A stretch of DNA of 64,000 nucleotides from Candidatus Bathyarchaeota archaeon. GTDB lineage: Archaea; Thermoproteota; Bathyarchaeia; Bathyarchaeales; Bathycorpusculaceae. The position numbers and the translations under genes are program-made. Below, piece by piece: positions 35,638 to 39,243 of this stretch. Under the pieces are notes generated by a model. It saw only the letters and a list, made by a program, of their open reading frames with translations, ran no database searches and was not told where the DNA came from. Each line of letters opens with the position of its first letter. Position 1 is the first letter of the stretch. The stretch covers positions 1-64,000 of the forward strand of contig CAVZIW010000001.1 of the NCBI GenBank assembly GCA_963775465.1, given 5' to 3'.

Positions 35638-38600
35638 AAAAAAAAAAAAAAAAAAAAAAAAAAAAAAAAAAAAAAAAAAAAAAAAAAAAAAAAAAAAAAA
35701 AAAAAAAAAAAAAAAAAAAAAAAAAAAAAAAAAAAAAAAAAAAAAAAAAAAAAAAAAAAAAAAAAAAAAAAAAAAAAAAAAAAAAAAAAAAAAAAAAAAA
35801 AAAAAAAAAAAAAAAAAAAAAAAAAAAAAAAAAAAAAAAAAAAAAAAAAAAAAAAAAAAAAAAAAAAAAAAAAAAAAAAAAAAAAAAAAAAAAAAAAAAA
35901 AAAAAAAAAAAAAAAAAAAAAAAAAAAAAAAAAAAAAAAAAAAAAAAAAAAAAAAAAAAAAAAAAAAAAAAAAAAAAAAAAAAAAAAAAAAAAAAAAAAA
36001 AAAAAAAAAAAAAAAAAAAAAAAAAAAAAAAAAAAAAAAAAAAAAAAAAAAAAAAAAAAAAAAAAAAAAAAAAAAAAAAAAAAAAAAAAAAAAAAAAAAA
36101 AAAAAAAAAAAAAAAAAAAAAAAAAAAAAAAAAAAAAAAAAAAAAAAAAAAAAAAAAAAAAAAAAAAAAAAAAAAAAAAAAAAAAAAAAAAAAAAAAAAA
36201 AAAAAAAAAAAAAAAAAAAAAAAAAAAAAAAAAAAAAAAAAAAAAAAAAAAAAAAAAAAAAAAAAAAAAAAAAAAAAAAAAAAAAAAAAAAAAAAAAAAA
36301 AAAAAAAAAAAAAAAAAAAAAAAAAAAAAAAAAAAAAAAAAAAAAAAAAAAAAAAAAAAAAAAAAAAAAAAAAAAAAAAAAAAAAAAAAAAAAAAAAAAA
36401 AAAAAAAAAAAAAAAAAAAAAAAAAAAAAAAAAAAAAAAAAAAAAAAAAAAAAAAAAAAAAAAAAAAAAAAAAAAAAAAAAAAAAAAAAAAAAAAAAAAA
36501 AAAAAAAAAAAAAAAAAAAAAAAAAAAAAAAAAAAAAAAAAAAAAAAAAAAAAAAAAAATTTTTTTTTTTTTTTTTTTTTTTTTTTTTTTTTTTTTTTTT
36601 TTTTTTTTTTTTTTTTTTTTTTTTTTTTTTTTTTTTTTTTTTTTTTTTTTTTTTTTTTTTTTTTTTTTTTTTTTTTTTTTTTTTTTTTTTTTTTTTTTTT
36701 TTTTTTTTTTTTTTTTTTTTTTTTTTTTTTTTTTTTTTTTTTTTTTTTTTTTTTTTTTTTTTTTTTTTTTTTTTTTTTTTTTTTTTTTTTTTTTTTTTTT
36801 TTTTTTTTTTTTTTTTTTTTTTTTTTTTTTTTTTTTTTTTTTTTTTTTTTTTTTTTTTTTTTTTTTTTTTTTTTTTTTTTTTTTTTTTTTTTTTTTTTTT
36901 TTTTTTTTTTTTTTTTTTTTTTTTTTTTTTTTTTTTTTTTTTTTTTTTTTTTTTTTTTTTTTTTTTTTTTTTTTTTTTTTTTTTTTTTTTTTTTTTTTTT
37001 TTTTTTTTTTTTTTTTTTTTTTTTTTTTTTTTTTTTTTTTTTTTTTTTTTTTTTTTTTTTTTTTTTTTTTTTTTTTTTTTTTTTTTTTTTTTTTTTTTTT
37101 TTTTTTTTTTTTTTTTTTTTTTTTTTTTTTTTTTTTTTTTTTTTTTTTTTTTTTTTTTTTTTTTTTTTTTTTTTTTTTTTTTTTTTTTTTTTTTTTTTTT
37201 TTTTTTTTTTTTTTTTTTTTTTTTTTTTTTTTTTTTTTTTTTTTTTTTTTTTTTTTTTTTTTTTTTTTTTTTTTTTTTTTTTTTTTTTTTTTTTTTTTTT
37301 TTTTTTTTTTTTTTTTTTTTTTTTTTTTTTTTTTTTTTTTTTTTTTTTTTTTTTTTTTTTTTTTTTTTTTTTTTTTTTTTTTTTTTTTTTTTTTTTTTTT
37401 TTTTTTTTTTTTTTTTTTTTTTTTTTTTTTTTTTTTTTTTTTTTTTTTTTTTTTTTTTTTTTTTTTTTTTTTTTTTTTTTTTTTTTTTTTTTTTTTTTTT
37501 TTTTTTTTTTTTTTTTTTTTTTTTTTTTTTTTTTTTTTTTTTTTTTTTTTTTTTTTTTTTTTTTTTTTTTTTTTTTTTTTTTTTTTTTTTTTTTTTTTTT
37601 TTTTTTTTTTTTTTTTTTTTTTTTTTTTTTTTTTTTTTTTTTTTTTTTTTTTTTTTTTTTTTTTTTTTTTTTTTTTTTTTTTTTTTTTTTTTTTTTTTTT
37701 TTTTTTTTTTTTTTTTTTTTTTTTTTTTTTTTTTTTTTTTTTTTTTTTTTTTTTTTTTTTTTTTTTTTTTTTTTTTTTTTTTTTTTTTTTTTTTTTTTTT
37801 TTTTTTTTTTTTTTTTTTTTTTTTTTTTTTTTTTTTTTTTTTTTTTTTTTTTTTTTTTTTTTTTTTTTTTTTTTTTTTTTTTTTTTTTTTTTTTTTTTTT
37901 TTTTTTTTTTTTTTTTTTTTTTTTTTTTTTTTTTTTTTTTTTTTTTTTTTTTTTTTTTTTTTAAAAAAAAAAAAAAAAAAAAAAAAAAAAAAAAAAAAAA
38001 AAAAAAAAAAAAAAAAAAAAAAAAAAAAAAAAAAAAAAAAAAAAAAAAAAAAAAAAAAAAAAAAAAAAAAAAAAAAAAAAAAAAAAAAAAAAAAAAAAAA
38101 AAAAAAAAAAAAAAAAAAAAAAAAAAAAAAAAAAAAAAAAAAAAAAAAAAAAAAAAAAAAAAAAAAAAAAAAAAAAAAAAAAAAAAAAAAAAAAAAAAAA
38201 AAAAAAAAAAAAAAAAAAAAAAAAAAAAAAAAAAAAAAAAAAAAAAAAAAAAAAAAAAAAAAAAAAAAAAAAAAAAAAAAAAAAAAAAAAAAAAAAAAAA
38301 AAAAAAAAAAAAAAAAAAAAAAAAAAAAAAAAAAAAAAAAAAAAAAAAAAAAAAAAAAAAAAAAAAAAAAAAAAAAAAAAAAAAAAAAAAAAAAAAAAAA
38401 AAAAAAAAAAAAAAAAAAAAAAAAAAAAAAAAAAAAAAAAAAAAAAAAAAAAAAAAAAAAAAAAAAAAAAAAAAAAAAAAAAAAAAAAAAAAAAAAAAAA
38501 AAAAAAAAAAAAAAAAAAAAAAAAAAAAAAAAAAAAAAAAAAAAAAAAAAAAAAAAAAAAAAAAAAAAAAAAAAAAAAAAAAAAAAAAAAAAAAAAAAAA

Positions 38601-39243
38601 AAAAAAAAAAAAAAAAAAAAAAAAAAAAAAAAAAAAAAAAAAAAAAAAAAAAAAAAAAAAAAAAAAAAAAAAAAAAAAAAAAAAAAAAAAAAAAAAAAAA
38701 AAAAAAAAAAAAAAAAAAAAAAAAAAAAAAAAAAAAAAAAAAAAAAAAAAAAAAAAAAAAAAAAAAAAAAAAAAAAAAAAAAAAAAAAAAAAAAAAAAAA
38801 AAAAAAAAAAAAAAAAAAAAAAAAAAAAAAAAAAAAAAAAAAAAAAAAAAAAAAAAAAAAAAAAAAAAAAAAAAAAAAAAAAAAAAAAAAAAAAAAAAAA
38901 AAAAAAAAAAAAAAAAAAAAAAAAAAAAAAAAAAAAAAAAAAAAAAAAAAAAAAAAAAAAAAAAAAAAAAAAAAAAAAAAAAAAAAAAAAAAAAAAAAAA
39001 AAAAAAAAAAAAAAAAAAAAAAAAAAAAAAAAAAAAAAAAAAAAAAAAAAAAAAAAAAAAAAAAAAAAAAAAAAAAAAAAAAAAAAAAAAAAAAAAAAAA
39101 AAAAAAAAAAAAAAAAAAAAAAAAAAAAAAAAAAAAAAAAAAAAAAAAAAAAAAAAAAAAAAAAAAAAAAAAAAAAAAAAAAAAAAAAAAAAAAAAAAAA
39201 AAAAAAAAAAAAAAAAAAAAAAAAAAAAAAAAAAAAAAAAAAA
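35638..39243. repeat. Homopolymer block: A 35638-36559, T 36560-37962, A 37963-39243
   Basis: Directly visible; 922 + 1403 + 1281 nt without any interruption. Confidence 0.98.

Follow-up and report, generated by a model that had tools for sequence, protein, structure and literature searches.

A stretch of 64,000 nucleotides from Candidatus Bathyarchaeota archaeon (assembly GCA_963775465.1, contig CAVZIW010000001.1, positions 1 to 64,000; this whole stretch is called the window below) carries at positions 35638 to 39243 a block which is composed of 922 A, then 1403 T and then 1281 A. The question raised by this locus is whether such a block belongs to the chromosome of the organism or only to its record in the database. 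The block sits within an integrated element of about 23.2 kb that has an integrase and flanking direct repeats, its homopolymers hold zero interrupting bases, and the switches between them are abrupt. An earlier note on the window had described three uninterrupted homopolymers with sharp switches, and the lengths A922, T1403 and A1281 were found exactly as it gave them. The answer reached here is that the block is not a biological feature. With a probability of about 94%, it is a technical artefact of long-read assembly, in which homopolymer base calls have taken the place of about 3.6 kb of ordinary sequence of the element.

The window represents the first 64 kb of the first contig of a genome of 15 contigs and 2,417,524 nt that is 92% complete (the home genome). 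Within it the block is unique and beyond chance. Outside the block, no other run of 12 or more identical bases was found in the window, and a scan of the rest of the home genome for A or T runs of at least 11 and C or G runs of at least 9 gave only C9, G9 and T14 as further runs. No N is present in the 64-kb window or anywhere else in the 15 contigs. The block also gives rise to three fake open reading frames (ORFs) of 1215 to 1460 codons of poly-Lys or poly-Phe, which lie on both strands between 35584 and 39999.

Blocks of a similar kind are found in other genomes of the same genus. A search with a run of 60 A detected A/T runs of at least 60 nt in nine of 120 genus genomes including the home genome, that is, in eight of the 119 others. 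All nine carriers are among the 66 genus genomes that are assembled into 30 contigs or fewer, and no carrier is found among the 54 that have at least 40 contigs. The eight other blocks read T461, T84-A43-G14, T148-A180-T1411, A564, T216-A19..T53..A43, A2621-16nt-C196-A189-T1486, T248-A22-T24 and T61-A49, and each of them stands at a different and unrelated place.

The exact junction A80T80 was likewise found in at least 123 stretches of a collection of species-representative genomes. Among the 80 loci listed, 79 are records of metagenome-assembled genomes (MAGs) titled 'isolate MFD...' and one is an isolate genome. The bacterial MFD loci come from Alpha-, Beta-, Gamma- and Deltaproteobacteria, Actinomycetota, Acidobacteriota, Planctomycetes, Verrucomicrobia, Chloroflexi, Cyanobacteria, Eremiobacterota and Aminicenantes, and the archaeal ones come from Thermoplasmata, Nitrososphaerota and Bathyarchaeota. 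According to a published description, MFD-named samples were processed with Nanopore R10.4.1 (Medaka model r1041), metaFlye 2.9.2 (--nano-hq) and one round of Medaka 1.8.0 (PMC12313526). The isolate is Mucilaginibacter sp. NFX135, whose 'complete genome' (NZ_CP183412.1, 3292066-3298557; locus L084) contains A114-T145-A187-T85..T72 at the end of the frame of a non-ribosomal peptide synthetase. Hence, the defect is not limited to one MAG project.

The blocks of this collection are A/T alternations that extend to more than 3 kb, with occasional runs of G (up to 1114) and C (up to 300) and with small islands of normal sequence. Their make-up bears on the possibility that a block is a deliberate placeholder or mask, namely A and T that a person or a program put in for a gap or a stretch of sequence. 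The sharpness of both junctions would agree with such filling, as would the block length, which about matches the sequence replaced. It is contradicted by the irregular lengths, the patternless alternation, the C and G runs and the short normal islands inside the blocks, and by the occurrence of the same blocks in named public records. The convention for gap-filling is N, and the genome has none. The gap placeholder which the earlier note had kept as an option is therefore not supported by the composite A/T/C/G blocks, and it is considered highly improbable.

Comparison of 89 block loci revealed no flanking similarity between any two distinct blocks. The positions of blocks along their contigs are uniform (Kolmogorov-Smirnov p=0.63, n=77), and on the basis of this uniform placement an origin of the blocks at contig ends was rejected. 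It follows that the blocks are bound to the kind of data set and not to lineage or sequence context, which argues for an artefact. The recurrence of same-kind blocks at unrelated places and in unrelated phyla in long-read assemblies supports the preference of the earlier note for an assembly or basecalling artefact, and at this locus the support comes from a cut gene that goes on in a close relative (P0007, discussed below). The separate idea that the flanks of blocks are noisy was dropped. The 90%-identical copy of an insertion sequence beside one block (L126) differs mostly by substitutions (118 mismatches, 11 indels), and these differences hence reflect real divergence and not read noise.

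The evidence at the locus itself is provided by the genes that run into the block. To its right, a minus-strand ORF of 252 codons ends at the block edge. It shows a weak similarity to Metallophos (PF00149; 22.9 bits against a cut-off of 21.5), which covers positions 47 to 174 of the 191 profile positions only and runs from about residue 119, at the third motif (GNHD), onward. Of the five metal-binding motifs of Metallophos, the ORF shows GNHD; it lacks the first two, since its front is another protein, and has lost the last to the block. A sequence search of the PDB gave no match to the ORF. Residues 1 to 139 correspond to the front of a small Ig-like surface protein, with 96-98% identity to the front of the surface proteins P0003 and P0004 (170-210 aa); this front protein is about 210 aa long and membrane-anchored. 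Judged by its sequence, the ORF appears to be a natural gene fusion or a pseudogene. Another assembly has the same fusion junction, with a frameshift that divides the fused gene into P0004 and P0007. The fusion appears real, since P0004 and P0007 sit on one contig of 23,132 nt of that assembly.

P0007 (394 aa) shares 89% identity with residues 171-253 of the cut ORF (83 aligned residues) and extends 311 residues beyond the junction. This continuation opens with WLAGHDHDGH and includes a complete second Metallophos domain (residues 167-362), and its GHDHDGH motif falls just past the point where the block truncates the ORF. A six-frame search of the home genome found P0007 encoded only for residues 1-83 (39241-39489). 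Because the remainder of P0007 is not encoded in the home genome, at least about 930 nt of coding sequence have been lost at the A1281 run, and to go by this comparison the right end of the overwritten sequence must hold the remaining part of the metallophosphoesterase-like gene. The gene had been described as a metallophosphoesterase cut just before its GHxH motif. The position of the cut, before GHDHDGH, holds good, whereas the ORF itself proved to be a fusion in which the Metallophos similarity follows the front of another protein. Likewise, the suspicion that real sequence was replaced and not simply interrupted is strengthened by the 311 residues that are absent from the home genome and by the replacement seen in both of the testable blocks elsewhere.

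To the left of the block, a plus-strand ORF reaches the block edge after its first 18 codons (MTSKTASKNDYLRNHEQY), and a divergent minus-strand RHH gene of the CopG type (Pfam RHH_1, 24.1 bits against a cut-off of 20.5) precedes it in the window; both had been claimed and both are present as claimed. The ATG of the RHH gene (35469-35467) is one base out of frame, the shift lying in a T4 run at 35458-35461, and a one-base insertion error in this run is the probable reason why the ATG is parted from its frame. A contig from sequencing run X4 is one base shorter at 35458 and would restore the frame of the ATG, which is only a hint as the depth is low. Such a one-base homopolymer indel, 180 nt away from the block, is as expected for long-read data.

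Searches for relatives of the locus gave the following results. In a DNA search of the genus, the flanks at 34838-35637 and 39244-40237 were without relatives among the matches listed. The Metallophos fragment had no match in 100 other genus genomes (one of 101, which is the home genome itself), and no relative of P0001 or P0007 was found in JGI metagenome contigs and IMG/VR. Matches to P0007 exist in 35 of 401 genomes of the class, for the second domain only and with an identity of at most 66%.

What the blocks replace can also be seen in other genomes. In G136, the two sides of a 746-nt A/T block can be aligned to a further contig of about 90% identity, and the gap between them measures 749 nt in the block contig and 742 nt in the other; these 742 nt are ordinary sequence of 79% GC in a genome of 73% GC. 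In G138, a contig end is folded back in the order arm a, block, b, b', X', a'. Here, one arm carries the block A269-T829 (1098 nt), and the matching part of the other arm consists of 1289 nt of normal sequence with 46% GC. A block takes the place of normal sequence of similar length in both testable cases, within 1% in one and 15% short in the other. A second copy of the block region was not found for G129 (the flanks of which match nothing in the genus), G137 or G139. As for the fold-back of G138 (L174; G138:C63:38000-56901), it occupies, from arm a to arm a', the last 18.6 kb or so of a contig of 56.9 kb as an inverted structure of about 9.3 kb per arm, with outer arms that are 99.8% identical and inner arms that are 93% identical, and it looks like a chimeric fold-back read that was built into the assembly.

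The replacement of normal sequence weighs on two explanations in which the polymer was physically present. In the first, poly(dA).poly(dT) arose from a side reaction of a polymerase or transferase during library preparation, became joined to real DNA by ligation or as a chimera, and was then truly sequenced. The A/T strand switches may resemble the inverted chimeras that are made by strand-displacing polymerases. Insertion of such a polymer would add length, however, and would not remove an equal amount of real sequence as in both testable cases and at this locus, where 311 codons are missing; the C196, C300 and G1114 runs do not fit either. This origin is given hardly any weight. In the second, the block is a real genomic poly(dA)/poly(dT) tract that was captured at a break after DRT9-like or terminal-transferase-like synthesis, which the earlier note had proposed in the event that the block was real. 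The presence of the sequence in the assembly is all that speaks for it. The blocks substitute for normal sequence and are not added to it, which includes the 746-nt A/T block of G136 against its 79%-GC stretch, the two genes truncated at the block have no continuation, and the same blocks are spread across many unrelated phyla with runs of T, C and G as well.

Template-independent synthesis of this kind also lacks an enzyme in the home genome as far as reverse transcriptases (RTs) are concerned. The window had been said to contain no visible RT gene, and this extends to the whole 92%-complete genome, in which an RVT_1 profile search gave no match; no search was aimed at terminal transferase or PolX. 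The same profile had matches in 3 of 14 control genomes. With no RVT_1, with T, C and G runs among the blocks and with substitution in place of addition, DRT9-like synthesis is not supported, and a real genomic tract is the least probable of all explanations considered, close to negligible.

The genes that are hit by blocks elsewhere bear on a further explanation. A Pfam scan covered 109 open frames of at least 80 aa that run into blocks at 63 loci, 15 of which could be assigned to a family. Pfam domains are cut mid-way by blocks at no fewer than seven loci (L052, L056, L078, L093, L094, L107 and L126), and among these 109 frames (15 with a family) there was no locus where the same family resumes on the far side of the block. 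The genes hit include housekeeping genes such as those for prfC, a sigma-54 activator, a protein kinase and an acetyl-CoA hydrolase. It could be argued that the block stands for real but unreadable DNA, that is, for a heavily modified or damaged stretch of the element at which every nanopore read fails and which the consensus turns into homopolymer. The location in a mobile element, in which one would be least surprised to meet unusual DNA modification, is in keeping with this, and so are the persistence of the artefact through assembly and polishing and the fold-back contig of G138, in which one strand was read well and the other was not. Against it stand the ordinary housekeeping genes named above, the lack of any sequence context common to the blocks, their presence in many phyla yet almost solely in one data series (79 among the 80 loci listed), and the related contig of G136, which reads normally. 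The explanation is very unlikely, although it is the least improbable of the rivals. If true, it would mean that some homopolymer blocks in long-read MAGs are footprints of an unknown DNA hypermodification and not random read junk.

An artefact of long-read assembly thus remains the preferred reading, and a route to it may be outlined. In one nanopore-type read, the basecaller would have become stuck on a single base, flipping between A and T (elsewhere C or G), and the assembler would have used this read as the backbone on which the draft contig was built. Polishing would then be unable to repair the runs, as a homopolymer offers good reads nothing to align with, so that their alignments break off at both edges of the block. 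The junctions would be sharp because the read alignments stop at the homopolymer edges. A backbone made of a stuck read would also explain the random placement of the blocks, their persistence whatever the coverage, and the roughly kept length. This inferred route takes somewhat more than half of the probability given to an artefact, and about a third of it goes to the alternative that the runs were introduced by the software for consensus or polishing.

Several points weigh against an artefact or leave it with less support than could be wished. The A80T80 junction had no matches in JGI metagenome contigs or in IMG/VR; as a control this says little, for assemblers of short reads are unable to produce runs of this kind, real or not. 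The share of MFD records (79 among the 80 loci listed) may depend on the scan order, and the agreement in length is based on two cases only, one of which is 15% short. Among public sequencing runs, none contained more than 0.14 of the sampled words of 32440-42439, so there is no read-level evidence for the locus. In the four best public runs on 32440-35680, no contig reaches 35492-35680 or the junction; they gave short contigs only, which lie on the integrase, on a tRNA-like piece and on parts of 35204-35491, and the contigs of public runs at this locus are neither support for an artefact nor a refutation of it. A literature search, at the level of listings, found no account of kilobase homopolymer blocks in nanopore assemblies.

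The blocks can be compared with several known phenomena. User reports describe low-complexity 'stuck' stretches of single-molecule reads that survive in assemblies of the Flye/Medaka type. The blocks resemble them as pure one-base runs with abrupt switches which are confined to long-read assemblies, lie at random places and escape repair for want of reads that align there, whereas no documented parallel was found for their kilobase size and nearly kept length. In two-colour Illumina chemistry, reads may end in poly-G tails; there too, false homopolymers arise when a missing or abnormal signal is called as one repeated base. Those tails belong to another platform, are limited to the length of a read, are always G and are normally trimmed, whereas the blocks are dominated by A and T, extend to more than 3 kb and lie within contigs. 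Residual one-base homopolymer indels of nanopore data, such as the one in the T4 run beside the block, belong to the same class of error; they change a run by a single base, whereas the block overwrites kilobases. Finally, the DRT9 defence reverse transcriptase makes long poly-dA as a free single-stranded product and needs an RT. Long poly-dA tracts are common to both, and the locus differs in its chromosomal A-T-A arrangement, in the lack of RVT_1 in the genome and in the T, C and G runs of its sister blocks.

The coordinates of the block, of the genes at its edges and of the ends of the element are collected in Table 1. The location inside an integrated element, as the earlier note had placed it, is confirmed by the integrase and by the two direct repeats, whose spacing from unit to unit is 23,186 nt with the block included. 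The integrase ORF encodes 514 aa, and its closest homologue, P0015 (434 aa), is 97% identical. The right repeat re-encodes the last 70 or so residues of the integrase (ORF 56332-56553, minus strand). The element encodes, besides the integrase and the RHH protein, surface proteins with PQQ repeats, a flavodoxin and regulators of the TrmB type. In G022, the closest relative in the genus, the interior of the element is absent. An inference on the length of the element was dropped: the unit of 23,186 nt is close to the 23,132-nt contig with P0004 and P0007, but the P0015 integrase is on a contig of 25,340 nt.

Table 1. Features of the homopolymer block (read here as artefactual), of the truncated and neighbouring genes and of the ends of the integrated element; positions refer to the window.
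Feature	Positions	Strand	Basis or remark
Homopolymer A x922, first arm of the block	35638-36559		base composition
Homopolymer T x1403, core of the block	36560-37962		base composition
Homopolymer A x1281, third part of the block	37963-39243		right-hand ~930 nt at minimum replace metallophosphoesterase-like gene (minus strand)
Cut ORF, first 18 codons (MTSKTASKNDYLRNHEQY)	35584-35637	+	ends at block edge
RHH (CopG-type) gene, divergent from the 18-codon ORF	35302-35466	-	Pfam RHH_1
Cut ORF, 252 codons, fusion ending at the block	39244-39999	-	Pfam and homologues
Tyrosine integrase, left end of the element	33143-34687	-	Phage_integrase, 59 bits
Left direct repeat, 204 nt, overlaps 3' end of the integrase gene	33161-33364		bounds the element
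Right direct repeat, 204 nt, 99% identical to the left copy	56347-56550		bounds the element

Some further observations were made in the window. Beside the integrase, the minus strand of 33078-33190 looks by eye like the 3' half of a tRNA (T-arm, acceptor stem and CCA), possibly with a 5' half that is split off by an intron; ARAGORN and Rfam found no tRNA at the left end of the element. Metagenome contigs pile up on this tRNA-like piece (depth up to 342) and diverge after 33118-33122. The segment of about 170 nt just upstream of the integrase start (34642-34816) has copies on the contigs C6 (85%) and C5 (75%) of the home genome and in G054 (80% identity). A second PQQ-repeat surface-protein gene on the plus strand, a paralogue of 40693-43260, is split into 44998-47325 (775 aa) and 47387-47773 (128 aa), and this split is probably another indel error or a pseudogene. 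Similarly on the plus strand, the ORF at 25295-26077 contains five tandem copies of ELKAPMDE in its middle.

For the archaeon, the block conceals about 3.6 kb of a mobile element of 23 kb and truncates two of its genes. The same defect is present at no fewer than 123 places in public genomes that represent species of many phyla, and one of these genomes is an isolate 'complete genome'. Gene callers could pass the fake poly-Lys and poly-Phe ORFs of such blocks on to protein databases. The value of the block is therefore that of a warning on data hygiene, and a screen for 50 or more identical bases would find blocks of this kind.

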